64,000 bases of DNA from a virus (lineage: Duplodnaviria > Heunggongvirae > Uroviricota > Caudoviricetes), in the IMG/VR virus record IMGVR_UViG_2585427754_000004; one strand, 5' to 3'. The notes beneath the pieces are model-generated. The model had not been told where the DNA came from, made no database searches, and was given only the letters and a program-made list of their open reading frames with translations. A program made the position numbers and the translations under genes. This document shows, piece by piece, positions 3,780 through 59,107 of the stretch (its first letter is position 1; each line of letters starts with the position of its first letter).

Positions 3780-4059
3780 ATCTCCTCTGTTCAAACTGAG
3801 TTTTCGACTCAAAAATTACTTTAAAAGGCTATAGCCCATTACGTGTGCATTATCAAATTGTGTACGGCATATCACCGTACTTGTAATATAGATGTCATTG
3901 TTACTTTTTTCAACAGACAAATACAAGCTATGTTTGCCAATTGTTAATCACAACCTACCATTTAACCTTTACACCGCAGCCGTAGGCATTTAGGCTATAT
4001 CACATATAAGAAAACAAGTTGTTTCAGACGATAATTATATACGCAAAGGGAACTCTCCA

Positions 4060-4728
4060 ATGACCAAGATCTTTGTGGTTGGCGGCACAAAGGGCGGGCC
4101 TGGCAAATCCACCGTTGCCCAGCAAATTGCCGTTTGCCTGAAAGTCAAAAAGAAGAAGAAGGTTTATATTACCGATATAGATATTCAGCGCACGACAACG
4201 AGCTGGTGTGAAGACCGTCGACAGAACGAAGACCTTGAGCTGATTCCTTTTGCATACGTTCAGGATGACATCATTAAGCACCTAAAATCGCTTCAGGGTA
4301 GAGCTGAGTTTGTAGTGGTAGATGCTGGTGGCTTCGACTCCGAAATTCAGCGACAAGCGATGCTGATGGCTGACGTTATCATTATCCCGCTGCGTCCTAA
4401 GCGTCGTGATTTGAAATCTTTACGTGACATCGATCCTATTATCGACAATGTTCGCAATGTAAACGATAAAGTGAAGGTCCGCGCGGTCATGAACCAGTGC
4501 CCGGCTTTGCCATCACAAGTGTCTCGCATTCTGGCGGCTAAAGAGATTGTTGAGACGTTTGGAATCGAGTCTGCGCCAGTCAATCTATATAACCGCAACG
4601 TCTATGATGATGCGGAAGAGTCTGGTCGCTCTATCTTTGAAATGACCGGTAGCGAGCGCGACAAAAAGGCGGAAGCCGAGTTTGAAGAATTTGTAGATTA
4701 TCTGTTGAGTCTGGAGGAAGAAGAATAA
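4060..4728 (+). CDS. parA: ParA-family partition ATPase (small type Ib)
   Basis: Deviant Walker A GGTKGGPGKST at the N-terminus; 222 aa; followed by a small RHH protein. Confidence 0.75.
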   Translation: MTKIFVVGGTKGGPGKSTVAQQIAVCLKVKKKKKVYITDIDIQRTTTSWCEDRRQNEDLELIPFAYVQDDIIKHLKSLQGRAEFVVVDAGGFDSEIQRQAMLMADVIIIPLRPKRRDLKSLRDIDPIIDNVRNVNDKVKVRAVMNQCPALPSQVSRILAAKEIVETFGIESAPVNLYNRNVYDDAEESGRSIFEMTGSERDKKAEAEFEEFVDYLLSLEEEE

Positions 4729-5087
4729 TGTCCATGAAAATGGGTGACCTAGCAAAGCGCAAAGAGCCTGATGCACCGGCTAAGAACACAACTCCTTTGC
4801 GCCAACCAGTCAGACCACAGGGACGCCCGACTCGTGGCAAAGAGAAAATTAAAAGCCGCACAATGTCACTGGAGGACGAATACTTCGAACTGCTGGAGAT
4901 GATGAAGTTCATCCCTCGCTTCGAGAAATTCACCCGTTCAGACGTGATTCGCGCAGCCATTTTCCATCTGGCAGAGAAGTCACCGCAGGAAATCGAGGAC
5001 ATCGTGAAACTTAACGAGGCGATCACAGCTGCCGATGTCACGATGCGTACCGATGAAATCAAACGAGAGTTGATGAAAAAAGGTTAA
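4728..5087 (+). CDS. Ribbon-helix-helix partition protein (ParG/ParB-like centromere-binding candidate)
   Basis: 119 aa with basic N-terminal tail and C-terminal RHH-like segment (TRSDVIRAAIFHLAE); start overlaps the parA stop. Confidence 0.45.
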   Translation: MSMKMGDLAKRKEPDAPAKNTTPLRQPVRPQGRPTRGKEKIKSRTMSLEDEYFELLEMMKFIPRFEKFTRSDVIRAAIFHLAEKSPQEIEDIVKLNEAITAADVTMRTDEIKRELMKKG

Positions 5088-5092
5088 AAATC

Positions 5093-5123
5093 ATGCATTG
5101 GCGCGTACATTGCGCCAATGCAT
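5093..5123. terminator. Perfect 12-bp inverted repeat between the convergent partition and GIY-YIG genes
   Basis: ATGCATTGGCGC-gtacatt-GCGCCAATGCAT. Confidence 0.5.
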
Positions 5124-5139
5124 AACTACAGTGTCAGCT

Positions 5140-6932: not shown

Positions 6933-6975
6933 CTAATACTAGAAAACAATTTGTTTAAAAAACAAAGGAAAGCAC

Positions 6976-8316
6976 ATGACCGAACTTTGCCATACAGGAC
7001 GCGGGCTGTCCGAAGAGTTTGATGAAGATTTTCAGAACAGATTGACGGCCTATTTTTGTCGTGATCACGAGTTTCTTACTCGTGCTGGAGATCTGGTTGT
7101 ACCTAGCCAATTTGCCAATGCGGCCAATGCCATATTGGTTAATATGGTTTCGGGCTATTACCGTATGTACAAGAGCGCGCCCTCTTCATCTGCGATTCTG
7201 GATATGCTTAAGCGTGCGAAACGCGATAAGACTATCCGTGAGGAACTATTCGCCGATGTTGTTGCTGCGTTTAAGCGCATCCTTGCAGAAAAATTGTCTG
7301 ATACCTCGTACATGGTTGACCAGGTATCAACCTTCGCAAAAAGTGTAGCGTTTGATGATGCTCTGATTAAGGCTGCTGAACTGAAAGAGAAAGGCGACTT
7401 TCAGGGGGCGATGGCAATCATGGCCAAGGTTCAGCAGATTGGATCGAACGAAGCGACCGGAATCTATGACTACTACACCTCCGCAAGTGAGCGATTGAAG
7501 GCGCGTGAATATGAGGCTTCAGAGGAGTATGTGCCAAACAGCATTACAACTGGACTCCCTCTGCTCGATAGGTTGCTGTACCAAAAAGGCTGGGCGAAGC
7601 GTGAAATGGTGCTCTTCATGGGGTTCGCTAAATCCGGTAAATCGACCGCAATGGGTGAGTTTTCCATAAACGCAACACTTGCTGGCTACAATGTTCTGTA
7701 TCTCTCGCTGGAGGTTCACACCACCATTTTATCCGACCGTTTTGATGCAAGATTGTCGGAGACAGAAATGTCCAAGCTGGTGGAACGGCGCGATGAGGTT
7801 CATCGTAAGTTGGCAGAGTTGGGAGCCACGAAGGGGATTGGTAGTTTGTGGGTGGTTGAGCGTCCGTCAGGAAGTATGTCACCGGCAGATCTGGACCGTA
7901 TGCTTAACAGCATGAAAGCCAACGGCATGGTACCTGACATGGTTGTTGTCGACTACGCAGATTTGATGCGTGCCAGTTATGACCTTCGTGATGATCGCGC
8001 CAACATTCGTAGTATCTACACCGATTTACGTGCTCTTTATGACAAGCATAACGTTGCTGGGATCACGGCATCGCAGACAAACCGTGAAGGTGGCGCGTCA
8101 GAAGTTGCCACAATGATGCACGCTGCCGACAACATCGAAAAAGTACGTATTGCTGACCTGGTAATAACGATCAACAAAACCGAAGAAGAAGAAGCGAAAG
8201 GAGAGGCTCGTCTCTACTTTGCTGGTTCACGTAACCAGCAGGGAGGGATCAGCATTCGCGTTAAACAAAACCTCGAACAAATGCGCTTCATTGAGCGAAT
8301 CTTAGACGTTACCTAA
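6976..8316 (+). CDS. DnaB-family replicative DNA helicase
   Basis: Walker A GFAKSGKST, Walker B VVVDYADLM, RecA-like C-terminal domain; conserved upstream AAACAAnTTGTTT motif and shared translation-initiation sequence. Confidence 0.7.
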   Translation: MTELCHTGRGLSEEFDEDFQNRLTAYFCRDHEFLTRAGDLVVPSQFANAANAILVNMVSGYYRMYKSAPSSSAILDMLKRAKRDKTIREELFADVVAAFKRILAEKLSDTSYMVDQVSTFAKSVAFDDALIKAAELKEKGDFQGAMAIMAKVQQIGSNEATGIYDYYTSASERLKAREYEASEEYVPNSITTGLPLLDRLLYQKGWAKREMVLFMGFAKSGKSTAMGEFSINATLAGYNVLYLSLEVHTTILSDRFDARLSETEMSKLVERRDEVHRKLAELGATKGIGSLWVVERPSGSMSPADLDRMLNSMKANGMVPDMVVVDYADLMRASYDLRDDRANIRSIYTDLRALYDKHNVAGITASQTNREGGASEVATMMHAADNIEKVRIADLVITINKTEEEEAKGEARLYFAGSRNQQGGISIRVKQNLEQMRFIERILDVT

Positions 8317-8325: not shown

Positions 8326-9579
8326 GTGGAGAACACCTCCACGCTTGATTCATTGGTGAAACAACTTTTCTTTTGCCAAACCACAAAAGAAAAACACATG
8401 AGCCTTTATGTTATATCAACATTTAGGTTGGTCACAATATTGCCTGTTAAAAGTGGAATTATCGTGAGCGAGCTGAAAGAGCTAATTACCGAATTAGATT
8501 TTGAACAATGGTTGGATACTGAAGGTATCGTTTATCGACGTGGAGGCGTGAGTACTCGCGGTCGTGAAGTGAATATCAAGGAGTGTCCGGTATGTGGCAG
8601 CTCCAACTGGAAGGTATATTTCAATCTGACCAGTGGCGTCGGTAAATGCTTCGCTGGTGATCATCCCGAAGAGATTCAGTTCAATAAGCTGGTCTTCCTC
8701 AAGCACTACAGCGGCAAATCACGACGACAGTTCGAGGAATATGTGCAGAACGCCCTTCTTTCCCAGGGGTGGGCACCAAAGAAAGAAGAGATAGTGCTTG
8801 CAAGCACAGTCGAGTTAGAGGGACCACTTGCACTCCCTCGTCATTACGAACTTCCTATAGATGGCCGTCTTCCAGACTATCTGGTTGAACGAAACATATC
8901 GCCTGAAATGGCAAAGTATTTTGACCTACGATACTGCGTCGAAGGCAAGCACGCTTATGTAGATCCGTATACAGATCAGGTTAAAGGACAGATATTCGAT
9001 ATGCGAATACTGATACCGGTTTACGATCTGGATGGGGTAATGAAGACATTTCAGGGGCGAGACATTACCGGTACAGCTGAACGTCGCTACCTCTTTCCTA
9101 TGCAGCTTCCAGCTTCAGGTAAGTTTCTCTACAACGGCCATAATGCGGTCGGCAAACAGACTGTAGTTGTCTGTGAGGGGGCGTTCGATGTTATGGGAGT
9201 TAAACGAGCTATTTTTGATGAAGAAACATTACGTGATTACGTGGAACCGATAGGAACGTTCGGGATGCATCTATCTGGTAACACCACTCAGGATGCAGAA
9301 GATCAGTTGGGCGCGTTCCTGACGCTCAAGGCGCGTGGATTACGTAATGTGATCATGATGTGGGATAGTGAAAAGCAAGCTATACGCAACACTATGGCCG
9401 CAGCCAGGCGACTGACCAGTATTGGTCTTAATGTCAAAGTAGCATGTTTGGGCGAGGAAGGACTCGACCCAGGCGATGCAACGCCAGAACAAATTATCAA
9501 AGCCTATTATCGGGCAAAACCGTATACCAAACAGTTGGAGTTGCAAAGCAAGGTTTTGGGCATTAAGGCGCTATCGTAA
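8326..9579 (+). CDS. DNA primase (zinc-binding plus TOPRIM)
   Basis: CPVCGSS ... KCFAGDH zinc-binding element, TOPRIM-like VVVCEGAFDVMGV; adjacent to the helicase. Start may be an internal Met. Confidence 0.6.
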   Translation: MENTSTLDSLVKQLFFCQTTKEKHMSLYVISTFRLVTILPVKSGIIVSELKELITELDFEQWLDTEGIVYRRGGVSTRGREVNIKECPVCGSSNWKVYFNLTSGVGKCFAGDHPEEIQFNKLVFLKHYSGKSRRQFEEYVQNALLSQGWAPKKEEIVLASTVELEGPLALPRHYELPIDGRLPDYLVERNISPEMAKYFDLRYCVEGKHAYVDPYTDQVKGQIFDMRILIPVYDLDGVMKTFQGRDITGTAERRYLFPMQLPASGKFLYNGHNAVGKQTVVVCEGAFDVMGVKRAIFDEETLRDYVEPIGTFGMHLSGNTTQDAEDQLGAFLTLKARGLRNVIMMWDSEKQAIRNTMAAARRLTSIGLNVKVACLGEEGLDPGDATPEQIIKAYYRAKPYTKQLELQSKVLGIKALS

Positions 9580-13950: not shown

Positions 13951-13955
13951 ATTTA

Positions 13956-14042: not shown

Positions 14043-14046
14043 AATT

Positions 14047-17502: not shown

Positions 17503-17600
17503 CCCCTCTTCTCCCTGCGCGAATGGCTTAGTTCCCTGTTCGCGCAGTGCTACATTAAACACACTAGTAAATAATTTGTTTTCATAACAAAGGATTAGCC

Positions 17601-19709: not shown

Positions 19710-19804
19710 ACAAAACAGCCTTAACGATAAGTAACCACTTACGATAGATAATGATATATTTATATAAGAAGTTGAACGCTCATTAGAAAACAAAGGAAAA
19801 ACGC

Positions 19805-21040
19805 ATGACTACTACTGCACTGCAAAATGAAAAAAATCCTTCTGATTACCTTGTTTGCAAGTGGTGCGGAAAATCATTTCACTATTTTAAGTCCCATGTA
19901 GCCAATGGTAATTGCGAGGGCATTCCTGAGTCAGTAAAAGATGCCGATCCTGACACCGTACTGAAAATGTACACAACACAGTTTCCAGATGAGCCAACGC
20001 TATCGAAAAAGGCACTTGATGCAATTCAAGCTAAACGTGCCGAGCAAAAAAGCGAAATGGCCAAATCATCTGGCGTGACCAGTAGCCCAGGCTACACAGG
20101 CACAGTTGAGTACAAGACAGATCTGGTCGCAGCTCACGAACTGCTAAATGTAACGGTGAAAGAACTCGGAACAAAACGTGGGACGCCGCTCATGGTTAGC
20201 GTCAACGTCAATACGCCGTATCCAGAGTTCGTTCCAGAAGTGAAGAAGGGCTACGTATATGGCGACTTCGAACTGATCAAAGATATTTTCATGATGCTTG
20301 AACTTGGCATACCTGGCTATTTGTGGGGTCATGCAGGAACAGGCAAATCGTCATTGCCTACACAGCTATGTGCTTTGCTCAATCGTCCGTTGATCCGTGC
20401 CCAACATACAGCATCAATGGAAGAGGCACATGTTACGGGGCAAATTCTGGCGCGTGATGGCTCTACGTATTTCGAGCCTGGCTTGCTTGCGCTCGCAATG
20501 AAGCATGGCTGGGTTTACCTCGCGGATGAATACGACTTTGCGTTTCCACAAATTCTTGGCGTGTATCAGCCAGTGCTGGAAGGTGAGGCGTTGGTCATCA
20601 AAGAGGCAACTCCAGAATGGCGTCGCATTACTCCGCATGAACGGTTTGCTTTCATTGGCACTGGCAACACAAACGGTTCTGGTGATGAAACCGGCTTGTA
20701 CCAGGGTACAAACATCCAGAACGCCGCGAACTTTTCGCGTTTTGGCATCGTTTCGAATGTGAAATACATGAGCAAAGAGGCAGAGATCAACATGTTGATA
20801 AATGCCGGTATCGTGGATGAATACGCAGAAAAGATGGTTAAGTTTGCCGGTATCGTTCGCGATGGATACGAAGAACACCTTATCAGTCAGCCAATTGGCC
20901 CTCGTGAACTTTTGTTGTCGGCCAAGATTGGAATGATGCGAGGCGACTTTGTGACAGGTATTGAGCGTTCTTTCATTAACAAACTCCCTTCAGCTTCTGC
21001 ACAAGCGGCTCGTGAAGTTGTTCAAAAAATATTTGGTTAA
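19805..21040 (+). CDS. AAA+ ATPase (MoxR/CobS-like)
   Basis: Walker A GHAGTGKSS, Walker B VYLADEYD; N-terminal Cys/His cluster; directly follows the vWA gene. Confidence 0.6.
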   Translation: MTTTALQNEKNPSDYLVCKWCGKSFHYFKSHVANGNCEGIPESVKDADPDTVLKMYTTQFPDEPTLSKKALDAIQAKRAEQKSEMAKSSGVTSSPGYTGTVEYKTDLVAAHELLNVTVKELGTKRGTPLMVSVNVNTPYPEFVPEVKKGYVYGDFELIKDIFMMLELGIPGYLWGHAGTGKSSLPTQLCALLNRPLIRAQHTASMEEAHVTGQILARDGSTYFEPGLLALAMKHGWVYLADEYDFAFPQILGVYQPVLEGEALVIKEATPEWRRITPHERFAFIGTGNTNGSGDETGLYQGTNIQNAANFSRFGIVSNVKYMSKEAEINMLINAGIVDEYAEKMVKFAGIVRDGYEEHLISQPIGPRELLLSAKIGMMRGDFVTGIERSFINKLPSASAQAAREVVQKIFG

Positions 21041-21220
21041 TCGTGCGTAAAGGATGTTTCGGCTCTCTTATCGCTGCTTCTGAAACTGGTAAGGCTTGTC
21101 TGGTGTGTCCAGACAAGCCCGATTGTCACCAATCAGCAAAAGAAGTTGCGATTTCGATGCATGGGAAGTTCGTAGGCTTCCCCAATGACAAAATCAAAAA
21201 AACCAGAAAGGTAAAAACAC

Positions 21221-24200
21221 ATGAAGGCACTGATGGTTCGAACTGACTTCTCACTTGGGGAGTCGGCTCTAAAAGCAGAAAACGCGGTGAAGATTGCCAG
21301 AGAAGCTGGCTACACCGCTGTAATTTCAGCAGATAGCATGAATATTGCGAGCGTTATTCCACTACAACGTGCCGCTGGTGACGACATGGCGGTTATTTGT
21401 GGTGTGAAACTAAACATTGTTGATGATCCCACATACGAACACCGGGCTAAACTTGCTAAAGAATCTATGAGATGTATGGAATCATTAGAGCGGGGACGTA
21501 ACTACTCGTTTACCGCTCTAATTAAAAATGAGCAAGGATATCGCGACATCTGCGAACTAATGACGGCGGCCAACACACGAGAACAGTTCTACTTTGTACC
21601 GCGTCTCTCGCTCGAACAGTTGGTTTCTACATATGCCAAAGGCAACATCATCCTGCTTACTTCCGACATCGGTAGCGTGTTCCAACGCAACGATTTTGCA
21701 AAAATCATAAGCACACTGATTACAGCGGGTGGAAAAGACAACTTCTATAGTGTGGTTTATCCGCACCCTACCCCATTCTACGACCAGATTAACGTCCGGG
21801 CGATGAAAGTCGCCAGCGCATTGAAAATAGAGCCAGTGGCGTTCTATCCCGCTTATTACGAATCGATCGACGATGCAGACATTAAAGACATCGCGCACAT
21901 GGTTACGAACAACATCAAAATCGACCAGCCGCATCGTCTGCGTATCCCCCACCAGCGAGATAACGCCGTCAATGGTCGCCGCCATCTCCTTGAGGCGCTT
22001 AAAGCCTTCTCCGTTCGCATGGATGTGCCTGTAACAGCTGCAATGGCCTCAACAACGCAGGATACCATTATCGATTCCTGCACATGGCGCTGGCATGAAT
22101 TGCCACCAGCACTGCCAAAGATGGCAGACGACGAGCCTGCAACGCTTATGAAACTGGCTGTTGCAGGGCTGCGTAAACGTCTTACCACAAAAGAGTTTGG
22201 CTACACACCACCTGCTTCTGAGAACAGGGTTTATGTTGAGCGGCTAAAGTACGAAATGGACACGCTGACTCGCCTGGGATTTTGTGGTTACTTCCTGATG
22301 GTACGCGATCTGATGAATCATAGTCGTGAAACTGGCATTCCCGTTGGGCCTGGTCGTGGTTCCTCTGCCGGTTCTCTGGTGGCGTGGTGCATAGGCATAA
22401 CCAACGTCGACCCAATCCGTCACGGTCTTCTGTTTGAGCGTTTCATCAACCCTGAGCGTCTCGACTTGCCGGATGCGGACTTGGACTTCAGCCAGGCACG
22501 TCGCCATGAGGTGATCGAGTATCTGAATGAACGCTACGGCGAAGATTACGTTGCGGGTATTCCGAACTTCACCTACCTGGGCGCAGCCTCTGCACTACGT
22601 GATACCGCTCGTATTTATGGTGTGGAGTCCGCAGATATGGCGGTATCAAAAGAACTGAAGAACGCTGAGGATGATAGCCTTCCATTGGAAGAACTGCGCG
22701 AACAACTGGCAAGTCTCGACAAATACGCAACAAAATATCCTGATGCATTCAATGCAGCCTGCAAGTTACAAAGCCTTATGCGTGGCTTTGGTAGACATGC
22801 GGCAGGGATGATCGTAGCAGGTGTTCCTCTGACAGAACGTACACCGGTTGAGCGCCGTGGTGACGCGCGTTGTATCGCATTTGACAAGCGTTACTGCGAG
22901 GCTATGGGCCTAATTAAGCTGGACGTGCTTGGCCTGGCAACTCTCGATTTGCTCGATAGTGCAAAACGCTACATAAAAGAGAACACAGGTGAAGATATCA
23001 ATCTTGATGCCATTTCTCTTGAAGATCGCAAGGTGCTGGATGGTTTTGCTGCTGGGTACACTCAAGGTGTTTTCCAGCTTGAATCAGGCCCAATGCGCAA
23101 GCTGCTTAAAGATTTAGGTGGTGGAATTGAGCCAATGAGCTTTAAAACGGTCGTCGCTACAACTGCGCTCTTCCGGCCGGGGCCAATTCAATCAGGCATG
23201 TTGGATGACTATGTTTCTGTCGCCAAAGGCTTTATGACGCCGGAATCATTACACCCCGTTCTTGATGAACTTACCGCGGAAACAAATGGCGTGATTCTCT
23301 ATCAGGAACAGACGATGAACGCGACTCGATTGCTTGCCGGCTTCACAATGGCTGAAGCTGACGCTGTGCGTTCCGCAATCGGTAAGAAGAACATGGAAAA
23401 AATGAAGAGCATGGGCGAGAAGTTCATCGTTCAGGCTCAAGCTGGCTGGATAGACGTTGAGCTGGAAGATGGCACTACACAGCGCATTCACCGTGCGGAA
23501 CATTTTAAATGCGAAGACGGAACTCTGAAAACTGTCGAAGAGGCACTTGAGCACGGCGCAAAACTACCTATAAACGCAGTACGCGTTACAGCGTCACATC
23601 CAGGGCTATCAGAGATGAAAGCGAAGGAGATCTGGACCGCATTTGAGAAAAACGGAGCCTATCAGTTCAATAAATCACACTCCGTTGCTTATTCTTTAAT
23701 CAGTTATCAGTCTATGTGGCTAAAGACGCACTACCCTGCTGAGTTCTTCGCAGCTGCGCTCACCATTCTGGGCGAGGATAAGCATCAGGGGCTGGTGAAG
23801 GATGCGCTGACCTATGGCATTCGCGTATTGCCACCAGACGTTAATGTGTCATCTAACCGAATTGAGATCCGCACACTCGAAGACGGCAGTCAGGCACTGT
23901 ATGCGCCATTCTCTGCTGTGAAAGGCTGTTCTGAAAATGGTTGTCAGGCAATTATGCGTGCGCGTGAGAAAGTTGGTGGCAAATTCGAGTCAGTGGCACA
24001 ATTCGATGAAGCGGTCGAGAAGCGTGCATGTAACAGTCGTGTACGCGAGTCGCTTCATAAAGTAGGGGCTTTTGCGTCAATTGAGCCAGGCAGTCTGCCA
24101 GCAACTGATCCTGAACGACTGCGCGACCAGGCTGAGCTGATGGGCAATCTCATCATTGACGCTGTTAAAGCATCACGTCCGTTCGAAATGAATCCTAAGC

Positions 24201-27122: not shown

Positions 27123-27239
27123 TTTTTGATAGATAATAAGTAAGTACTGATCTATCATTTAACAGCTCGAAAGAGCCACGAATGAACGAAAGCCCAACGC
27201 GCATAGCGCCATCGGCCAAATCACAACAAGGAGAAACAC

Positions 27240-28268
27240 ATGTCTAAGACATTACTTGATTTGCTTAACAAAACTCGTGAAGACATTGCCGCCAAACGTG
27301 GCAACAACGTTGATCTGACTCGCTTAAAAGACGGCGTCAACTATATCCGCATCTTCCCGAATAAAGACGACCCAAACGGTAAGTTCTTCCAGACTTTCGG
27401 TATGCACTACGTTAAGTATCAGAACGAGGAAGGTAAAGAAGCAACCAACGCTTATATTTGTGAGCAACATACTCACGGTCGCGCTTGTCAGCTATGCGAA
27501 ATGGTTATGGAAGGTCGCGCTCGTCACAAGGGCAACAAAGCAATGGAAGAACGCATCGGTCAAATGCGTGCCACTCCTCGCTACCTGGTCAACGGCATTC
27601 TTTCTGCTCGTGAGGATTTCGCAGATGCTGAGAAATGCCAGTTAATCGAGCTGCCGTCTACTGTATTCGATGATATCTGCAAAGCAATCACCGAAGACAT
27701 CGCTGATGATATCGGCAATCCACTGAGCAAAGAGGAAGGCTACGCATTCCTGATTAAACGTACTGGCTCTGGTCGCGATACCAAATATGACGTCTCGCCT
27801 AAGCGTAAAGTCTACAAAGGCGATATCGAAGATAAATTCTGGAACACCCAGCATGATCTGATCGCATACGCAAATCAGGCTGATGAAACTCGTCTTCTGT
27901 CGACAGTTCGCACTATGGGTCGTCTGATTGGCATCGCTGCACCAACTGCCGCAGCATCTGCACCAGCAATTTCCTCAACCGCGAAAACATCGGCTGCGGC
28001 ACTACCTGGATTTGGCTCTGTCACTGGTCATACGGAGGGTGCGACTGCTGTAGCAACCGCTCACACCCCAGCTTCTGAACCAACCAGTCTGGTTGATGAA
28101 GAAATCCTCCGTGCCGTTGAAACTGAATTTAAACCAGAAGCAAGTTCCGCTGCCGTTGCCGTATCAGTCAAAGAGTCTGAAGCAGTCGCAGCGACATCTG
28201 TAGCAGCCGCATCTGCGACGGAAGATGAAGGTCTGGATGACCTACTGAGAGAGCTGGACTCTCTGTAA
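27240..28268 (+). CDS. Single-stranded DNA-binding protein (T4 gp32-like)
   Basis: N-terminal YIRIFPNKDDPNG (compare gp32 RFLPSKNDEQ), Zn-binding HTHGRACQLCE, Ala/Ser-rich linker and acidic C-terminal tail DDLLRELDSL. Confidence 0.6.
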   Translation: MSKTLLDLLNKTREDIAAKRGNNVDLTRLKDGVNYIRIFPNKDDPNGKFFQTFGMHYVKYQNEEGKEATNAYICEQHTHGRACQLCEMVMEGRARHKGNKAMEERIGQMRATPRYLVNGILSAREDFADAEKCQLIELPSTVFDDICKAITEDIADDIGNPLSKEEGYAFLIKRTGSGRDTKYDVSPKRKVYKGDIEDKFWNTQHDLIAYANQADETRLLSTVRTMGRLIGIAAPTAAASAPAISSTAKTSAAALPGFGSVTGHTEGATAVATAHTPASEPTSLVDEEILRAVETEFKPEASSAAVAVSVKESEAVAATSVAAASATEDEGLDDLLRELDSL

Positions 28269-30646: not shown

Positions 30647-30708
30647 TATATTGAAAATGTATAAGCACTTACTTATCATTAGCACACAATAACCACATAG
30701 GAAAACAC

Positions 30709-31785: not shown

Positions 31786-31834
31786 TCGCAATTATCTTAT
31801 TAAGAAAACAATTTGTTTAAAAGGATAAGAAAAC

Positions 31835-32260: not shown

Positions 32261-32315
32261 TCGCCTATTCATAACTAACAAAATAAGTAAACACTAACCA
32301 CAAAAGGAAAAACAC

Positions 32316-32591
32316 ATGAGAGTTTTAGTTCGAATCGTTACCAGCACTGTCTATGACGTGTTTCCGCTTTTTATGGTCAAAGCCGATGGCCTTAACGACG
32401 AAGAAACTGACGCGCTGATCCAGCGTATTCTCGTTGAATATACAGGTCATGACGCTGATTCAGTGATGGTTGATGATGATGGTGTTTGTTGGCATAACGG
32501 CAACTGTTGGTACGTAGAAGAGACTCAACAAATCAGTGATGAAGATGCCGAACATCTTGAGCGTATTTTAAGCATCAGCACTTTTGAGTGA
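32316..32591 (+). CDS. Hypothetical acidic protein
   Basis: 91-aa ORF with the shared AAAGGAAAAACACATG initiation sequence. Confidence 0.35.
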   Translation: MRVLVRIVTSTVYDVFPLFMVKADGLNDEETDALIQRILVEYTGHDADSVMVDDDGVCWHNGNCWYVEETQQISDEDAEHLERILSISTFE

Positions 32592-36287: not shown

Positions 36288-36541
36288 CCCTCCAGATCGT
36301 ATATTGGCGTAGATAGAATCTACGCCCCCTCAAAATAGCTCTCATAGCGTTCTACAGTGATCCTGTCTTATTTTTAGTCATACAGACAAGCAAAGTTGCG
36401 CCACGATAAATAGGTATATACTTACTTATAAATTTTGTATATTAAGGCGCTCGTTTCATTCCTAACATACCGTTATGCATAGTTGTTTACCTCCTCATTG
36501 CTCTTAGAATTTGTATCAAAATAACCACAAAGGAAAAACAC

Positions 36542-37627
36542 ATGACTTTGCCATACGGCGTCATTTCTGACTGCCACTACCACAAATGGGATGCGTTCTC
36601 CACGACGAACGCTGAGGGGCTTAACTCCAGACTTGAAATACAGTTGGAAGCAACGAAAGAAGCAGCCATCGCCATGAAGAAGGCCGGTTGTAAGTACATG
36701 TTGGTTGCCGGTGATACATTTCACGTCCGAGGAACTGTGTCCCCTTCTGTTTTGCATTACGTAACTGAAACGTACAAGTGGATTATCAACGAGCTTGATC
36801 TGACAGTAGTAATGCTGGCCGGTAATCACGATCTTGAAACCAACGATTCAGTATATAGCGCCAACGCAGCAGCATCGCTGAGTTCTATCGGCGTGGTAAT
36901 CGTATGTGGCAAGCGCCCACACTCAATAAAAATTGGCGATGTGACTGTCCACCTGATTAGCTGGCGTAACAATCATGCGGAGCTTATCAGCGATCTGAAA
37001 GCATTACGTAAGAGCGTAGAAGGTGATAATCATGACGTTGTTATCCATACATCCATTAACAAAGCCATTCCAACAATGCCTGACGTCGGTATCGATGCGC
37101 AGGAGTTAAAGGATATCGGCTTTCGTCTCGTGCTTAGTGGGCATTACCACAACCACAAAGAGGTCATTCCTGGAGTTATCAGTGTCGGTGCACTGACTCA
37201 TCAAAATTGGGGAGATGTTGGATCTCTGGCTGGCTACATGATCGTAAACCCGGACGGCAGTTTCAGTCACTACGAAACCAGTGCGCCTAAATTCATTAAC
37301 CTGGAAGATGATGTTGCTGATGACCAAATTCGCGGCAACTACGTGCGTTTCCGCGCCGTAATTGAGAACGATGAAGAAGGCATTAAGTACCAGAACATCC
37401 TCAAAACAATGGGTGCAAAAGGTGTCGTGTGCAACTTCATCCGTAAGTCATCAATGATGGAAGGTACAGCCAGCACAACTGAAACCAGCAAAATCGATAG
37501 CCTGGGAGAGTCGGTATCTGCTTATTGCAAGATTGTCCACGATACTGACGGCGGATTTGATCTGAGCAAATTGGATATTTTGTGTCAGGAAATCCTCACC
37601 GAAGCGGAGAGTTCGGAGGCTGTGTGA
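36542..37627 (+). CDS. Mre11/SbcD-family nuclease (T4 gp47-like)
   Basis: Calcineurin-like phosphoesterase motifs DCHYH, AGDTFH, LAGNHD, SGHYHNH; shared initiation sequence. Confidence 0.8.
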   Translation: MTLPYGVISDCHYHKWDAFSTTNAEGLNSRLEIQLEATKEAAIAMKKAGCKYMLVAGDTFHVRGTVSPSVLHYVTETYKWIINELDLTVVMLAGNHDLETNDSVYSANAAASLSSIGVVIVCGKRPHSIKIGDVTVHLISWRNNHAELISDLKALRKSVEGDNHDVVIHTSINKAIPTMPDVGIDAQELKDIGFRLVLSGHYHNHKEVIPGVISVGALTHQNWGDVGSLAGYMIVNPDGSFSHYETSAPKFINLEDDVADDQIRGNYVRFRAVIENDEEGIKYQNILKTMGAKGVVCNFIRKSSMMEGTASTTETSKIDSLGESVSAYCKIVHDTDGGFDLSKLDILCQEILTEAESSEAV

Positions 37628-43510: not shown

Positions 43511-43574
43511 TGTAAGCCTTGTTTAAACACATAAGATAACAACTTGTTTAAACACATCAAAAAAGGAAAAACAC

Positions 43575-44717
43575 ATGTCATATTCAACGTTCCGTTTGGG
43601 TGCTAATGATGCAACCAAAGAGCCTATGTTCCTCGGACAATCTGTCAACGTGGCACGTTACGATCAGCAAAAATACCGTGATTTTGAAAAGTTGATTGAA
43701 CGTCAATTGTCTTTCTTCTGGCGGCCGGAAGAAGTTGATATTTCGAGTGATCGTATCGACTTCAACACGAAGCTGCGGGACCACGAACGTCACATTTTTC
43801 TGAGCAATCTCCGTTATCAAACGTTACTCGATTCAGTTCAGGGACGTAGCCCAAATGCAACGCTTCTGCCGCTTATCTCTATTCCTGAACTGGAAACGTG
43901 GGTTGAAACATGGTCTTTCTCTGAGACTATCCATAGCCGCAGCTACACCCACATTATTCGTGGCATGGTGGACGATCCGAGTATTGTTTTTGACGGTATT
44001 GTTACGGATGAAGAAATCATCAACCGAGCGATCAGTATCTCTGCTGAATATGACAGGCTTTATGGGATGACCTGCGAGCGCCAGTCGTTAGGTGAGAAAG
44101 AGTTTGAACGTCTGTACGTAAATGAATATGGCTGGGAGCCATACCCTTTGCACCGTCAGCTTTTCCGCACGTTGGTGTCCATTAATGCGCTTGAGGCGAT
44201 CCGTTTCTATGTAAGTTTTGCATGTACGTTTGCCTTTGGCGAACGGAAGTTGCTTGAGGGTAACACCAAAATTATGCGCTTTATTGCCCGTGATGAAGCT
44301 CTGCATTGCGAAGGAACTGAACGCATGATCCGCTTCATGCGTACCGGTCGCGAAGGCTTATTGTGGAAAGAGATTGCTGCTGATGAAGAAAACGTCATTT
44401 ACGACACCATGAAATCAGTCGCCGAACAAGAAATGAACTGGGCAGACTATCTCTTCAAAGACGGTTCGATGATTGGTTTAAACGCGGATATTCTGAAGAC
44501 CTATGTAAAATACCGCACCAATCTGGCTATGAATCGTCTTGGCCTGAAGGCTTTATTTCCAGAAGTTACCACAGATCCGCTGGTCTGGATGAACAAGTGG
44601 TTGTTAACCGACACACTGCAAATTGCACCACAAGAGGCAGAGCAAAGCACATATCTGGTAGGTCAGATCGATTCTACCGTGGATAAGGCTTCTCTAAGCC
44701 AGTTTGCAGACCTGTAA
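43575..44717 (+). CDS. nrdB: Ribonucleotide reductase class Ia beta subunit
   Basis: Di-iron/tyrosyl radical motifs ([23 protein letters not shown]); 380 aa; no intron interruption seen. Confidence 0.9.
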
Positions 44718-53695: not shown

Positions 53696-53788
53696 CGGCT
53701 GTTAGTGCATATGCATTGACCATCTTTGCGTAAGCAATTTATGAAACTATAAAACAACTTGTTTTGACAAATAACAAAAGGAAAACAC

Positions 53789-54214
53789 ATGTTAGGTTTC
53801 TTCAAAAAGAAAACTCGTAAAGCTGTTATCGAAGTCAAAAAAATGGAGAACCGTGATGCGGTTGAGGCCACCGTGTGGGGCGCGTACATGATCTCCTATG
53901 CCGACGGCACATGTGACGCAAAAGAAATTGCCATTCTTGAGAAGACAATTGCAGCTCTGCCTGCGTTTTCTCCGTTTGCTGGTGAAATTGCCCAAATGAG
54001 CGCCAATATCCGTGCTCGTTACGAAGCGTCCCCTCGTTCTGCTAATGCACAGGCTATTCGTGAGCTGTCTGATATTGCGGGTACTCCAGAGGCGGTCGAT
54101 GTTCTGTGTCTGTGCCTTGATATTGCCGATCAGGACGGCATTGGCGAACAAGAAGAGCAGGCACTTAAAAAGATCGCCCAGGCGCTTCAGTTGTCACTGG
54201 ATGCTTATCTCTAA
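53789..54214 (+). CDS. TerB-like domain protein
   Basis: MLGFFKKK ... ISYADGTCDAKEIAILEK ... CLCLDIADQDGIGEQEEQALKKIA follows the TerB two-repeat pattern; conserved upstream motif. Confidence 0.45.
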   Translation: MLGFFKKKTRKAVIEVKKMENRDAVEATVWGAYMISYADGTCDAKEIAILEKTIAALPAFSPFAGEIAQMSANIRARYEASPRSANAQAIRELSDIAGTPEAVDVLCLCLDIADQDGIGEQEEQALKKIAQALQLSLDAYL

Positions 54215-54403: not shown

Positions 54404-54511
54404 TGACCGAAATAGAGAGTTTGCACCTTTACGTTTAGCTTGCTCCCCTTTTATGCCACATCACAATAAAGCCAATAAGAAAACAACTTGTTTAAGCATT
54501 AGGAAAAACAC

Positions 54512-55081
54512 ATGTGCAAGAAATGCAAAGCGATAGCTGATGAACAAAACGCCTTATTCGAAGAAATGGATGCTAATGAACTGGTCAAAATGTTAGCCAT
54601 TCTTCGAGGAATAGAAGACGTTTCCATATTTGAGAGAGTGGTTACAGCACTTAATTTTGAGTCCACCTTTGAAGAGCCAACTCAGGTTGTAGCTTTAGCA
54701 CATCATTTCGGTGTTCATTATCTTGCTGAAAAAGAGCGCGCTGATAAGTTGCAGGCGACTTTGGATATGGTGAGCGAGACTCAACGAACTGATGACACTA
54801 ACAAGAGTGAGGCGATTATTGCCAGCAAAGATCGTGAAATTGCTGGGCTTAAATCCTCTCTAACGATGTTGATGTCTGCGTTCAATCTTATGTCTTCTCA
54901 GGCGGGTTATAAAATGCCATCACTAAACAGCGATGATCCGATGGCCGTTCGTCAGCTTTTGGGAGCAATGGCCGACCAACTCGACGACACAAAGAGTCGG
55001 CTTGAAGACATGATGCGTGAGTTAAGCCATCGACATAACCTCGCAACACAGCCACACAAAGCCTTTCAAAGCTCTAATTGA
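54512..55081 (+). CDS. Hypothetical protein
   Basis: 189-aa ORF with conserved upstream motif. Confidence 0.35.
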   Translation: MCKKCKAIADEQNALFEEMDANELVKMLAILRGIEDVSIFERVVTALNFESTFEEPTQVVALAHHFGVHYLAEKERADKLQATLDMVSETQRTDDTNKSEAIIASKDREIAGLKSSLTMLMSAFNLMSSQAGYKMPSLNSDDPMAVRQLLGAMADQLDDTKSRLEDMMRELSHRHNLATQPHKAFQSSN

Positions 55082-56035: not shown

Positions 56036-56138
56036 CCAATGCCTTTATTTGAACGATTGCCTGTTTATTTCTATTTAGTACCTTTTCATTTTTGAAATAA
56101 TTGCACCATTAAACAAATCACTTCTTAATGGTGCAATT

Positions 56139-57824
56139 ATGAATACAGCCCTTTCCATCATCGACGATGCCAACTCAAACACTGCTATCGACTATCGGCA
56201 GGAAATGAACGTCATCCACGAAATTGTGGCCGAGTGCGAGAAAGAGATCGCCTTCATGTATCAGGTACACGACTTCGTTTATGGCGACGAACGCCACAAC
56301 ATGATTAATCGCCTGCTGAGACTAAACCATCGACCAGATGAAGATCGCTCGCGTTTAAATCGAGGTTGGTTGGATAAAGTCGATCTGGAATGGGTGAAAC
56401 AGAATATTTGGGCCGAGTACTGGAGTAAGGTCACGGACATGACTAACGTTTTGCTGATCATGCCAGCTTCCCGTCGAGATGAGTGGCGCGAGCAGTTTAT
56501 AGAGGGCAAACAGGAAGTCATCAAAACTGACAGAACCGGCTACCAGATGAAGGTTAAAGAGTTCGTTGGTGTACCGGAGTTCAAAGCAGAAACGGTCATA
56601 CCCACGATGCTTAATTTGCTGAATGACAGGCACAAATATCTCTCTGAGCGCGTGTATGGCTTGTTTAAGGCGCTGAGTCCTGCGCACAAGACAAATAAGA
56701 CAAACGGTTTCAGCGAGCGTCTGATAATCGCTGACTGCATTTCTGATTTCTGGCGGGACAGCGTTAGCGTGAACTATCGCAAAGAGGACTACATCGACGA
56801 TCTGCGTGTCTTGCTTCATTTCTTCGCGCACAAAGAATTTATTACCATCAACCGCACTGCTGAGGTGCTATCAGCTGCGTATCGAGCAAACGACTGCCAG
56901 ACCGGTGACTGGATGAACGTCGATGGAAATCTGATGCGCGTGAAGATGTTCAAGAACGGCAACGTTCACTTTGAAATACATCCTGACGTGGCCTGGAAGT
57001 TGAATGAGGTGCTGGCTTACAGTATGCCTGCTGCAATCCCCGCGCCATGCCGAACTGCGCCAAAAACACGGGCACCAAAGCAGTTCGGGTTAATCCAGAA
57101 GACGATCTCCGTGCCGGTTCGCACTGCGCTTCGTGACGGGCGATTGAGCAAAGACAAAGGCGTATGGTACTTCTCTGATTCAGCTCTCCAGAAGTCGCAG
57201 GTGGAAGAGCTTGAGCGCACACTGAGCTTCATTGGCGGCGTGCAGGAGAAAAAGCACTGGCAGTTCCCGTATGACATCGGCCATACGCTAAATACGATTG
57301 TGGCTACCGGTTTAATACCGGATACAAAATCACACCAGTTCTACCCTACCCCACGCTTGATTGCTGAGTACGTTGCCAGAGCCACTGAATTGAAGCCTGG
57401 TGAGAAGCTGCTGGAGCCTCAAGCCGGACGTGGGGATCTTCTGGCCTATATTAACGCCGATCTGGAAGATGTTACCTGCATAGAAATCGCACCTCTCTTC
57501 GCTGATATCCTGCGTGGAAAAGGGTATACGAACACGATTTGCTGCGACTTCATAAAGTGGTCTGAGGACAACGCAGGTTATCAGTTCGACAAAATCGTTA
57601 TGAACCCGCCGTACTCGCTTGGTCGTCATAGAGAGCACACGCTGGCTGCGCTGGGGCATCTGAAAGTCGGCGGGCGTCTTGTAGCAGTATTGCCGGGCAC
57701 TGCGCCAATACTGGACTGGATGACGATGGATAATTACGTTTATGCCAGAGGGAAGTCGTTTACCAACGAGTTTGAAGACACAGGGATCACAGTCAGCGTA
57801 TACGTTTTCAAACGCGTTAAATGA
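56139..57824 (+). CDS. Large protein with C-terminal SAM-dependent N6-adenine methyltransferase domain
   Basis: Motif I LEPQAGRGDL followed by motif IV MNPPYS in the C-terminal third; about 370-aa N-terminal region of unknown function. Confidence 0.5.
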   Translation: MNTALSIIDDANSNTAIDYRQEMNVIHEIVAECEKEIAFMYQVHDFVYGDERHNMINRLLRLNHRPDEDRSRLNRGWLDKVDLEWVKQNIWAEYWSKVTDMTNVLLIMPASRRDEWREQFIEGKQEVIKTDRTGYQMKVKEFVGVPEFKAETVIPTMLNLLNDRHKYLSERVYGLFKALSPAHKTNKTNGFSERLIIADCISDFWRDSVSVNYRKEDYIDDLRVLLHFFAHKEFITINRTAEVLSAAYRANDCQTGDWMNVDGNLMRVKMFKNGNVHFEIHPDVAWKLNEVLAYSMPAAIPAPCRTAPKTRAPKQFGLIQKTISVPVRTALRDGRLSKDKGVWYFSDSALQKSQVEELERTLSFIGGVQEKKHWQFPYDIGHTLNTIVATGLIPDTKSHQFYPTPRLIAEYVARATELKPGEKLLEPQAGRGDLLAYINADLEDVTCIEIAPLFADILRGKGYTNTICCDFIKWSEDNAGYQFDKIVMNPPYSLGRHREHTLAALGHLKVGGRLVAVLPGTAPILDWMTMDNYVYARGKSFTNEFEDTGITVSVYVFKRVK

Positions 57825-57884
57825 TAGGTAAATACTTACTTAATTTGTGTAAGAATGTAATAACTAAACGATAAGAGAAAACAC

Positions 57885-58589
57885 ATGAACAACCTCCAGT
57901 TAGAGCATTTTAACGTCACAGGCCATTCTGATTTTCCTTTCAAGTTTACATTGAAAGGTTATGCAGAGGATGCGGTAGGCCAGATCATTATTGATAAAGG
58001 CATCGTTAAGTTTGAGGGGGATTTTGATGAATCCGCGAAAACATTCATAGACTTCGTTGCCAAACGTTGGAGCGAGCAATGGAAAGACCTGGAAAAGCGC
58101 GCTAGTGAGTTTGATCGGTTCATGGATGCAATGGATACAGCAAAAGAGGCTCTTGCTGCCGGGACTCCGTTAGATCTGGAGTCACTTTTCAACGGCGAAG
58201 TGGCCTCTGCGATGTTCGCCACCATGTTCGCGGGTGAGTTCGTCCGCAGCGGTGCCAAAAACTACCTTGAGCTGGATTACAACGTCCCTGCAATTGGCGA
58301 TTTCGTCGTTACCATCCAACGCAAAGAAGGTAAGACGCCAGGTGAACGCGTCGCAGAGCTTGAGGCCGTTGTGGATCAGCGTAACGGAGAGTGTGACCGT
58401 TTGATCAACGAGCTTCATGCACTTCGGGAAGAAAGAATATGCGCGGGTAGCAATACACGTAATGCAGCGGATATCTACTTCCAGTTAGTTGAGGAATGCC
58501 AGATTCCACCAGGCGGCTCTCTTGTCGATTACGTCAGACATTTAATGACGGAAGTTAACTCCAGCCATAAAGATGGTGAGGTGCGCTGA
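57885..58589 (+). CDS. Hypothetical protein
   Basis: 234-aa ORF with AAAACACATG initiation sequence. Confidence 0.35.
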   Translation: MNNLQLEHFNVTGHSDFPFKFTLKGYAEDAVGQIIIDKGIVKFEGDFDESAKTFIDFVAKRWSEQWKDLEKRASEFDRFMDAMDTAKEALAAGTPLDLESLFNGEVASAMFATMFAGEFVRSGAKNYLELDYNVPAIGDFVVTIQRKEGKTPGERVAELEAVVDQRNGECDRLINELHALREERICAGSNTRNAADIYFQLVEECQIPPGGSLVDYVRHLMTEVNSSHKDGEVR

Positions 58590-58969
58590 TGTTTGGCATT
58601 GACGCACAGCGTGTAGCCGCTTTTGCAAAAAGCCCTCTTGATAATCCCTTGTCTCGTAGTGAGCAAATGGAGCTGGCAAGGCTTTTTCTTCACATTCAAA
58701 AACAGGCAGACATTTTCAATAACATGCCTAATCAACCTATTCTGGATGGTCACATCCAGATGGTCATTAACAGTCATGAGAAAGGCTGGGCTGCAATCGT
58801 CCCCTGCACAATTACATACAAGTTGGCGAAAGAGGTTCAAGAGTTTCGAAAAGCCAGTGTCGAATCGGAGTCTACCAAAGCCGCAATAAACACTCTTATT
58901 CGCATGGGGTTCACATGGACCGGTGGAGCCTACTGGCAAGCACCTCAACCCATTTTATCCGGCAATTAG
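58589..58969 (+). CDS. Hypothetical protein
   Basis: 126-aa ORF, start overlaps previous stop. Confidence 0.3.
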   Translation: MFGIDAQRVAAFAKSPLDNPLSRSEQMELARLFLHIQKQADIFNNMPNQPILDGHIQMVINSHEKGWAAIVPCTITYKLAKEVQEFRKASVESESTKAAINTLIRMGFTWTGGAYWQAPQPILSGN

Positions 58970-59107
58970 GCGCTACAAATCCTTCTGCATGAATAAATAA
59001 AGGCCATAAGTTATGGCCTTAAATAAATTGTTTTCTACCTTTTCTTATTTGTGAAAATAAACCAGCACTTGGTAGTGCTTATGTAACAGCAAAGAAGAGA
59101 AAAACAC

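Follow-up and report, generated by a model that had tools for sequence, protein, structure and literature searches.

The 64,000-nt stretch considered here (IMG/VR virus record IMGVR_UViG_2585427754_000004, hereafter the window) comes from an SSU5-like phage-plasmid. Over 8 kb it shares 97.5% identity with Escherichia phage Cyrano (OV696614.1), which E. coli LF82 carries as a phage-plasmid of this type. According to the annotation of Cyrano, the window runs from tail-fibre and lysis genes at one end to a MinD-like gene at the other. Between them lie parA, the genes for a helicase, a primase and a ligase, tRNAs, an integrase, a CI-like repressor and cobT/cobS-like genes, as well as genes for Pol III alpha, UvsY, a gp32-like single-stranded DNA-binding protein (SSB), RecA, RepA, SbcCD, NrdAB and ThyX and many small genes. 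Nearly all of the genes are on the + strand, and 12% of the window is intergenic. The subject of this account is a pair of short signals that recur in front of these genes: a palindrome, AAACAANTTGTTT (also written AAACAAnTTGTTT), and a start-region motif with the consensus aACAAAGGAAAaCACATG, i.e., aACAAAGGAAA(a/g)CACATG. The literature searched on SSU5-type elements offered no description of their gene regulation.

The relatives used for comparison are Cyrano, SSU5, the Klebsiella pneumoniae plasmid pFF979_1 and Klebsiella phage pJN2-26, all from Enterobacteriaceae, with the addition of Klebsiella phage GArcari-2022b and pW18-2-b, an SSU5-like plasmid of Moellerella wisconsensis (Morganellaceae). 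The divergence of pFF979_1 is considerable: its helicase is 70% identical to that of the window, and the median identity of its proteins to those of Cyrano is 53%. Some 750–800 records in the plasmid collection searched carry SSU5-type genes for the helicase or for the small partner of ParA considered below.

Two recurring signals in the window

The palindrome occurs exactly five times in the window (at 4012, 6944, 31806, 53752 and 54481), as compared to a mean of 0.01 occurrences in 100 shuffled sequences, and a further three copies, at 17569 (AAATAA..), 43537 (TAACAA..) and 59021, differ from it at one position. All eight copies lie between genes, on the + strand. In seven of the eight the end of the palindrome is 16–35 nt from a start codon, and these are preceded by (A/T)AGA or a close variant. 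The genes behind these seven sites are parA, the helicase gene, cobT (with a von Willebrand factor A, or vWA, domain), a gene for a 141-aa protein, nrdB, a TerB/TciA-like gene and a gene for a 189-aa protein. The eighth copy lies 74 nt before its gene and upstream of a −10 element, an architecture that recurs in Cyrano, SSU5 and pFF979_1. When two mismatches are permitted, the number of matches is near chance (12 against 5.5 expected). The palindrome is therefore real, as the original prediction had held from an inspection of this sequence, and the positions it gave for seven copies are correct within 1–2 nt; its distance of 20 to 30 nt before the start codon is only approximate.

The second signal was described there as an almost invariant initiation region shared by a larger set of genes, and this too bears out: the 16-mer AAAGGAAAAACACATG is found exactly three times in the window and ten times within two mismatches, against 0.10 expected. 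Twelve start codons preceded by a Shine-Dalgarno (SD) sequence end in (A/G)CACATG (those in Table 1 other than 19805, which ends in CGCATG), so that the motif marks 12–13 genes of the window, all of them early genes on the + strand; none of the 12 is on the − strand. Among the genes named at the outset, the SbcD-like gene, nrdB, the SSB gene and the genes at 57885 and 59108 do carry the motif, the AAA gene has CGC in place of CAC, and the vWA gene (17601) fits only in part (aacaaaggattagccATG). The motif is not merely a part of a promoter, since it is found also within an upstream coding region, at the start of Pol III alpha (21221). Where palindrome and start-region motif occur together, there is no fixed distance between them (22–31 nt).

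An unbiased count of 7-mers in intergenic DNA ranks words of a third kind, containing TAAGTA, first, followed by words from the palindrome and the start-region motif. The TAAGTA class is taken up below.

Table 1. Coordinates in the window of the palindrome copies, the start-region motifs and the gene of one candidate binding protein.
Feature	Coordinates	Strand	Gene (start codon)	Remarks
Palindrome AGA-AAACAAGTTGTTT	4009..4024	+	parA (4060)	exact; 35 nt before ATG
Palindrome AGA-AAACAATTTGTTT	6941..6956	+	DnaB-like helicase (6976)	exact; 19 nt before ATG
Palindrome, degenerate copy AAACAACTTTTCT	8359..8371	+	primase (8398)	two mismatches; uncertain
Palindrome AAATAATTTGTTT	17566..17581	+	CobT/vWA (17601)	one mismatch; 19 nt before ATG; TGcTACATT 12 nt upstream
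Palindrome AGA-AAACAATTTGTTT	31803..31818	+	(31835)	exact; 16 nt before ATG; preceded by terminator-like hairpin 31760-31779
Palindrome TAACAACTTGTTT	43534..43549	+	nrdB (43575)	one mismatch; 25 nt before ATG; preceded by terminator-like hairpin 43480-43498
Palindrome AAACAACTTGTTT	53749..53764	+	TerB/TciA-like (53789)	exact; 24 nt before ATG
Palindrome AGA-AAACAACTTGTTT	54478..54493	+	(54512)	exact; 18 nt before ATG; CACAAT 13 nt upstream
Upstream-type module AAATAAATTGTTT-TCTACCTT-N11-(TGt)GAAAAT	59021..59062	+	(59108)	adjoins hairpin 59000-59020
Start-region motif (AAAGGAAAGCACATG)	6963..6978	+	helicase (6976)	
Start-region motif	8385..8400	+	primase (8398)	
Start-region motif	19792..19807	+	CobS/AAA (19805)	CGC for CAC
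Start-region motif	21208..21223	+	Pol III alpha (21221)	inside upstream open reading frame; no promoter context
Start-region motif	27227..27242	+	gp32-like SSB (27240)	
Start-region motif	30696..30711	+	66-aa membrane protein (30709)	
Start-region motif	32303..32318	+	91-aa protein (32316)	exact 16-mer
Start-region motif	36529..36544	+	SbcD-like (36542)	exact 16-mer
Start-region motif	43562..43577	+	nrdB (43575)	exact 16-mer
Start-region motif	53776..53791	+	TerB/TciA-like (53789)	
Start-region motif	54499..54514	+	189-aa protein (54512)	
Start-region motif	57872..57887	+	Ead/Ea22-like (57885)	
Start-region motif	59095..59110	+	Eae-like (59108)	
Candidate binding protein, 119-aa ParA partner	4728..5087	+		invariant KSRTMS(L/I)EDE and FTRSDVIRAAI

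Conservation in related phage-plasmids

With at most one mismatch, the palindrome is found 18 times in Cyrano (9 exact), 20 times in SSU5 (11 exact), 17 times in pJN2-26 (11 exact) and 21 times in pFF979_1 (15 exact). The relatives keep it at orthologous promoters and have it at additional ones, while the flanking sequences diverge. The site upstream of parA is kept in Cyrano, SSU5, pFF979_1, pJN2-26 and GArcari-2022b, that of nrdB is present also in SSU5, the TerB/TciA-like gene has an orthologous site in pFF979_1 and pJN2-26, and the site of cobT, imperfect in the window, is an exact palindrome in SSU5 and pJN2-26. The two halves keep a strict spacing: there are 12 copies of AACAA-N1-TTGTT in Cyrano and 18 in pFF979_1, whereas each of the alternative spacings between N0 and N11 gives zero or one.

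An alignment of 57 palindrome sites of the family, 35 of them of a downstream type and 16 of an upstream type, provided the consensus. In the downstream type, TGnGATAAT is followed by about 13 nt (aACACCAAcAAGA), the palindrome, 10–30 nt that include the SD sequence, and ATG; the best copies, with TGnGATAAT 13 nt ahead of the palindrome, are all outside the window. In the upstream type, the palindrome is followed by TCTGCCTT, 11 nt and (TGn)GATAAT. Since AGA is conserved to the left of downstream-type sites and TCT to the right of upstream-type sites, the full site is a 19-bp dyad, AGAAAACAA-n-TTGTTTTCT, in which exactly 1 nt separates the halves and the half-site centres are 10 bp apart. The sequence TCTGCCTT-N11-GATAAT was compared by eye to two known promoter types and matched neither: a T4 MotA box would stand about 3 bp further from the −10 element, and the −35 part is unlike that of sigma-28.

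Both types of site are found at one promoter, 51 bp apart, in three genomes, and pairs of palindromes spaced by 25 bp lie before the small terminase gene in Cyrano and SSU5 and before another gene in pFF979_1. In the case of the terminase gene (Cyrano 57-140, SSU5 56-140), a GC-rich hairpin and a run of T come after the pair, immediately ahead of the ATG. They resemble a terminator set between promoter and late operon and hint that the late genes are controlled by antitermination.

Three-way alignments of the regions upstream of the helicase gene and of the gene at 54512 leave, as islands conserved with pFF979_1, only a −10-like hexamer (CATAAT/CACAAT), AGAAAACAAnTTGTT and the start region. 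The flanks of the different sites within the window are unrelated to one another. This pattern across lineages indicates purifying selection on the palindromes. The original prediction recognized that its case would collapse if the conservation were explained by recent duplication of one promoter cassette. Some modules are indeed alike over 25–35 bp (e.g., AATAACCACAAAGGAAAAACACATG before 32316 and 36542), as might be expected if the motifs were copies of a recent promoter or ribosome-binding-site cassette with no regulatory meaning, but I find that explanation barely credible. Besides the unrelated flanks, the cobT site differs in quality between the window and SSU5, and orthologous positions still carry sites in lineages whose proteins have a median identity of about 53%. 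Because the motifs stay conserved islands within flanks diverged to that extent, recent duplication is rejected.

The start-region motif shows a similar constancy. CAC is the most common trinucleotide before SD-preceded ATG codons in the window, Cyrano, SSU5, pFF979_1 and pJN2-26, but not in the Moellerella plasmid. In pFF979_1 the motif marks 17 gene starts by a strict pattern, and 21 starts end in CACATG. These include the starts of RuvC and RecA, which are free of the motif in the window. Individual genes thus acquire or lose the motif separately, and selection maintains it.

Two of the relatives are of particular use. GArcari-2022b lacks the ligase gene and a gene for a 71-aa winged-helix-like protein, yet has exact palindromes at parA, the helicase gene and cobT. 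The Moellerella plasmid contains no exact palindromes, three one-mismatch matches that do not resemble promoter sites, and no start-region motif; the left half of the palindrome, ATAAGAAAACAA, persists alone at a few promoters. The intergenic DNA of this plasmid is enriched instead for TTATATAA, and a 12-nt direct repeat, AAATAACAAGGC, occurs twice just before its parA, so that it seems to rely on other regulatory signals.

A scan of IMG/VR found several copies of the motif per locus essentially only on SSU5-like contigs. Outside the family, three loci without a match to a Cyrano protein had three or four one-mismatch copies, and those inspected were apparently isolated chance matches. Two of these three loci are in low-GC DNA, and many of the matches outside the family are in low-GC contigs.

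A putative operator and a putative translation start module

The reading that I favor, with fair confidence, is that the palindrome serves as an operator for a dimeric regulator encoded by the phage-plasmid, probably a repressor, and that the start region constitutes a separate translation module. The 19-bp dyad would be read by a protein encoded by or specific to the SSU5-type phage-plasmids of Enterobacteriaceae, and it would lie between an A/T-rich promoter devoid of a −35 element and the SD sequence of rightward (lytic-strand) transcription units. At the best-defined sites the promoter would be the extended −10 element TGnGATAAT. The operator would then span roughly +1 to +20, and a protein bound there would obstruct RNA polymerase; a site for a repressor is thus the most likely kind. 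A second copy centered near −38, 51 bp (about five helical turns) upstream, is present at some promoters and may permit cooperative binding on both sides of the promoter. What the analysis shows directly is the sequence of the sites, their statistics, geometry, position and conservation and the lack of RNA structure; from these I infer where promoters and transcription starts lie, that a protein binds at the level of DNA, whether it acts negatively or positively, and what the start motif is for.

The dyad symmetry of the site, the fixed spacing of its halves (N1) and the symmetric AGA...TCT extension seen in the consensus fit a dimeric DNA-binding protein. In the transcriptome of the LF82 lysogen, which gives one level per gene (PMC9928086, supplementary file 2), genes behind the sites are near background (helicase 21, cobT 7.8, nrdB 12.9, tciA 7.0), while the parA operon is on (50–89). 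Symmetry and spacing, taken with the position between a −10-like element and the SD sequence and with the near-background expression in the lysogen, make a repressor a reasonable choice. Furthermore, terminator-like hairpins are found 0–96 nt upstream of five of the window sites, indicating that the sites open new transcription units. It had been proposed at first that the signals denote co-regulation by a translational or transcriptional repressor. The two classes of signal do imply co-regulation, and a transcriptional repressor is reasonable for the palindrome; for the start motif, a repressor is one option beside selection for an efficient, unstructured ribosome-binding site. Not noticed in that proposal were the longer promoter-operator module to which the palindrome belongs, its two placements relative to the −10 element, and its presence throughout the family.

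Several observations weigh against this account. A scan for consensus sigma-70 promoters (−35 TTGACA, 16–18 nt, −10 TATAAT, with at least 9 of 12 matches and correct spacing) found none on the + strand at any palindrome site of the window. The nearest match, TTGCCA-16-TACCAT at 3934-3961, lies 50 nt upstream of the parA palindrome. Such promoters are also depleted overall (7 against 23 expected, 5 against 11, 15 against 20), and from their absence and depletion the promoters at the sites would be ones that lack a −35 element. The extended −10 element (TG at −15/−14, one base upstream of a hexamer of the type TAnnnT) is clear in many sites of the family outside the window (TGcGATAAT, TGtGAAAAT). 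Within the window it is found at 17569 (TGcTACATT) and 59021 (TGtGAAAAT), and the other sites have weak A/T-rich hexamers; the −10-like hexamers at seven window sites are weak and at varying distances from the palindrome (4–13 nt). The persistence of the left half-site by itself in the Moellerella plasmid may mean that this half also functions within the promoter or leader. The same plasmid retains, almost unchanged in their putative DNA-binding segments, homologues of ParA, of its small partner and of an 88-aa winged-helix-like protein (Cyrano gene 123). With respect to the start module, the near-invariant CAC at −3 to −1 exceeds what an unstructured spacer requires. Finally, the silence in the lysogen of genes behind the sites also fits a missing activator, and a site centered at −38 could equally serve an activator.

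These last points bring up the possibility that the palindrome binds an activator, or a factor that modifies RNA polymerase, for lytic promoters without −35 elements, as a middle-class promoter element would. The depletion of consensus promoters also speaks for it, in that the promoters may need help, and −38 is a position typical of activators. I nonetheless consider this rather unlikely, for 35 of the 57 sites follow the −10-like element at 16–35 nt from the ATG, with no room for a promoter further downstream, and activators rarely work from +14.

Action at the level of RNA, with the palindrome as a hairpin in the 5'-leader that governs antitermination, processing or translation, I regard as highly improbable. 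The palindrome does lie in a probable transcribed leader, near the SD sequence, and at 6944 and 17569 its right half can pair with a downstream AACAAAGG. The folds of the seven leaders, however, are weak (−0.6 to −5.2 kcal/mol) and no better than those of shuffled sequences (z from −0.5 to +1.5), and no family in Rfam matches the leaders. On these grounds the hairpin is rejected. In addition, a centre of 1 nt cannot form a loop, and upstream-type copies precede the −10 element and so would go untranscribed from their own promoter.

If the palindrome is an operator, then it should be distinguished from that of the CI-like repressor, whose gene (16652-17038, − strand) has a divergent neighbor encoding 70 aa. 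The region between the two contains one GGTAAGTGCTTACC palindrome and three half-sites like GGTAAG/CTTACC, and half-sites of the TAAGTA class cluster at 17038-17290. The TAAGTA/GGTAAG..CTTACC sites are for this reason probably the operators of the CI-like repressor, which leaves the AAACAA palindrome to a second regulator, in agreement with the initial view that the palindrome and start motif are distinct from the TAAGTA class. The two classes of site alternate along the early region; for example, TAAGTA sites stand before nrdA and cobS, and the palindrome before nrdB and cobT. Sites of the TAAGTA class are inverted repeats, ATAgGTAA..TTACcTAT, with a central part of 0 to 6 nt, a variability odd for a site bound by a dimer. 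They lie upstream of 1480, 6134/6183, 9655, 10487, 17067-17085, 19805, 30709, 41159, 45835, 50672 and 57885, and several are followed by extended −10 elements of the type TGTAAGAAT.

Nor does the palindrome fit the LexA box (TACTGT-N8-ACAGTA). The only SOS boxes of the LexA type in the window are at 15508-15527, just upstream of the integrase gene (15554), and at 62501-62520, upstream of a gene (62537-62926) for a 129-aa S24 peptidase that resembles UmuD/HumD and lacks a DNA-binding domain. Their placement suggests that the integrase and peptidase genes are under direct SOS control.

Turning to the start region, it is probably a family-specific module for efficient initiation of translation, maintained by selection. 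It would consist of the SD sequence AAGGA and an unstructured spacer of 7–8 nt made up only of A and C, selected on early genes and genes of DNA metabolism. The motif resembles a half-site of the operator (AAGGAAAACAC vs. AAGAAAACAA), and at some promoters of pFF979_1 the half-site runs directly into the SD sequence. I infer that starts with and without the operator are variants of one modular promoter-leader cassette.

The start region may alternatively be a translational operator, a target for an RNA-binding repressor of the phage-plasmid analogous to RegA of T4, a tentative idea that I place on the unlikely side. Its sequence-specific conservation, including CAC at −3 to −1, extends across lineages and unrelated genes, and the genes concerned function in replication, recombination and nucleotide metabolism. 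A member of the FljA family would be a possible candidate for the repressor: Cyrano gene 114, outside the window, matches the Pfam family Flag1_repress at 1e-80, FljA-like proteins have been reported to block translation of fliC mRNA (PMC2652032), and both this gene and the start motif are absent from the Moellerella plasmid. But that joint absence comes from a single lineage, the target usually ascribed to FljA homologues on mobile elements is the flagellin of the host, and an efficient unstructured site can be selected with no regulator at all. As with T4 RegA, genes of replication and nucleotide metabolism share a sequence overlapping the start codon; the sites of RegA are loose and AU-rich, whereas the start motif is tight and A/C-rich. 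No protein like RegA was found by phmmer among the open reading frames (ORFs) of three genomes with a T4 RegA sequence as query, which is a weak test.

One further instance of the start-region motif (aaaagaaacacATG) precedes a 19-codon ORF (10929-10988) within the end of the gene at 10487-10969. The ORF overlaps the start of the ligase gene (10966) out of frame and could be a coupling or leader ORF, or a product of chance.

Candidate binding proteins and known systems

Which protein might bind the palindrome? The gene order at parA invites one answer: a small ParA (4060-4728) is followed by a small partner (4728-5087), with the palindrome at 4012 upstream of both, which is the arrangement of the omega and ParG systems. 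By analogy with omega and KorB, the partner may bind the palindromes as dispersed partition or centromere-like sites, repress parA, and silence other promoters in a manner sensitive to copy number. I judge this unlikely, though by no means a negligible possibility. In its favor, every motif-bearing lineage has the palindrome in the promoter region of parA, and the segments of the partner listed in Table 1 are invariant in 12 homologues down to 48% identity and resemble in pattern the strand and second helix of a ribbon-helix-helix protein. Counts of tblastn matches to this protein per host genus in the plasmid collection roughly match those of the helicase gene, and it appears to accompany SSU5-like plasmids of Enterobacterales. 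It is, moreover, expressed in the LF82 lysogen (PMC9928086, supplementary file 2). No conventional repeat array of the omega/ParG type was found near parA, only single palindromes or pairs at 25 or 51 bp. The lack of such an array near parA counts for the idea, and the occurrence of the sites as single palindromes counts against it. Omega binds 7-bp heptads and the operator of KorB is 13 bp in length; the 6-1-6 geometry of the palindrome amounts to two 7-bp units.

Other evidence on the partner is less favorable. Pfam, PHROGs, a sequence search of the PDB and Foldseek gave no match to it or its predicted fold, and the AlphaFold2 (AF2) monomer has a predicted local distance difference test (pLDDT) value of 63 and a predicted template modeling (pTM) score of 0.23, with helices at 48-60 and 70-84 after the conserved SRTMS segment. 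The homologue from Moellerella keeps IKSRTVSMEDE and SRSDVFRAAL on a plasmid without the palindrome. The product of Cyrano gene 123, which is encoded outside the window just upstream of terS and is 78% identical in pFF979_1, is weakened as a binder together with the ParA partner, because Moellerella keeps both without the palindrome.

Two other proteins of the window were considered and set aside. The 71-aa winged-helix-like protein (12447-12662) is disfavored, since GArcari-2022b keeps exact palindromes without the gene; about 150 Klebsiella plasmids seem to be without it as well. The 189-aa CxxC protein (54512) is an unlikely binder, for it has no homologue in pFF979_1 at E < 1e-5 and the site there is unchanged. 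Genes that are present in all motif-bearing genomes and absent in Moellerella include three small genes from a site-dense cluster at 93–98.5 kb in Cyrano, a Cra-like gene and the gene of the FljA family. Pfam gave nothing informative for eight small genes of that cluster, one other Cyrano gene or the window gene at 54512.

It is very unlikely, in my estimation, that the palindrome is bound by a protein of the enterobacterial host rather than of the phage-plasmid. Elements of Escherichia, Salmonella and Klebsiella have the motif and that of Moellerella, a member of another family (Morganellaceae), does not, which speaks for such a protein. Against it, the recurrence of the motif in IMG/VR is essentially confined to SSU5-like contigs, and the palindrome is not known to resemble the consensus of any E. 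coli regulator. A more elaborate possibility, decidedly unlikely as a whole, is that the ParA partner or another conserved small protein acts as a genome-wide silencer at some 20 lytic-strand palindromes and is titrated as copies multiply, the start region providing a second, translational layer of control (e.g., through the FljA-family protein).

Each of these ideas has precedents. The C1 repressor of P1, also a phage that lives as a plasmid, uses one short operator at many separate replication and accessory promoters as a single regulon. P1 operators, however, are asymmetric 17-mers bound by a monomeric protein of 283 aa, whereas the site considered here is a strict dyad, and the SSU5-type element appears to have a separate CI-like repressor with TAAGTA/GGTAAG sites. 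The KorB/KorA system of the IncP plasmid RK2 has a 13-bp 6-1-6 palindrome at about a dozen plasmid promoters, sometimes just upstream of the −35 element, and KorB is a partition protein that doubles as a global repressor. Its operator, TTTAGCSGCTAAA, is nonetheless unrelated to the phage-plasmid palindrome, the gene after parA encodes no ParB domain recognized by Pfam, and the ParB_N-domain protein of the family, whose gene lies beyond the window and does not share an operon with parA, has no known link to the sites.

With omega (pSM19035) and ParG (TP228), the likeness consists of a small type Ib ParA followed by a small DNA-binding partner with a site in the par promoter, and omega also represses several further promoters through 7-bp repeat units; the difference is that omega and ParG bind arrays of contiguous repeats, whereas the phage-plasmid sites are single palindromes and the ribbon-helix-helix fold of the partner is only putative. 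Operators of 434 and the lambdoid phages are dyads of 14–19 bp, have half-site centres about 10 bp apart, overlap promoter and start, and are bound by helix-turn-helix dimers. They are grouped as two or three sites in a single immunity region; the phage-plasmid palindrome is scattered at about 20 places in the genome, and what the immunity region contains is the TAAGTA class. Membership in the P1 C1, KorB, omega or lambdoid systems cannot be claimed, since the sequences differ, no homologous regulator was identified (for C1, no search aimed at it was made), and the array typical of omega/ParG is lacking.

Some features of the window that touch neither signal may be noted. ARAGORN finds four tRNA genes (Asn, Tyr, Thr, Ser) at 13876-14529, of which tRNA-Tyr is extra relative to the three (Asn, Thr, Ser) annotated in Cyrano. 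Cyrano gene 43, in contrast, is absent from the window (15343-15554, as compared to Cyrano 40083-41090) and so is a variable accessory gene; in the LF82 lysogen it is the most highly expressed gene of Cyrano, 723-fold over background (PMC9928086). A full-length match to the Rfam cspA thermoregulator (185.7 bits) at 25018-25436 on the − strand indicates a CspA-family cold-shock gene with a regulatory 5' untranslated region carried by the phage-plasmid. An inverted-repeat element of about 60 bp (GCCTGCTTCTGTATATATAAATAA...TATATACGGAAGCAGG) is present at 6018-6078 and 51288-51346, and the same sequence forms the termini of the linear genome records of Cyrano and SSU5. It could be a site of packaging, recombination or resolution repeated within the genome. 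The words CTACAGTGG(ATA) and CCACTGTAG, repeated at 33412-33838 and 35346 on both sides of the RepA gene (33844-34899, − strand), are probably the iterons of a plasmid origin.

The palindrome and start motif amount to a real and previously undescribed regulon-level signal of a familiar kind, supplying compact, portable control elements and revealing no new principle. The map of promoter-operator and translation start modules marks genes of replication, recombination, nucleotide metabolism and partition, and with it the switch between life as a plasmid and lytic growth can be tested directly, using a 19-bp probe and the few proteins named as candidates. Interest in the switch is heightened by the frequency of SSU5-type phage-plasmids in clinical Enterobacteriaceae, common as they are in Escherichia, Klebsiella, Salmonella and Enterobacter. 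Should the genome-wide silencer prove true, it would tie partition and copy number to the silencing of phage genes and would provide these widespread clinical phage-plasmids with a two-layer system of control specific to the family.

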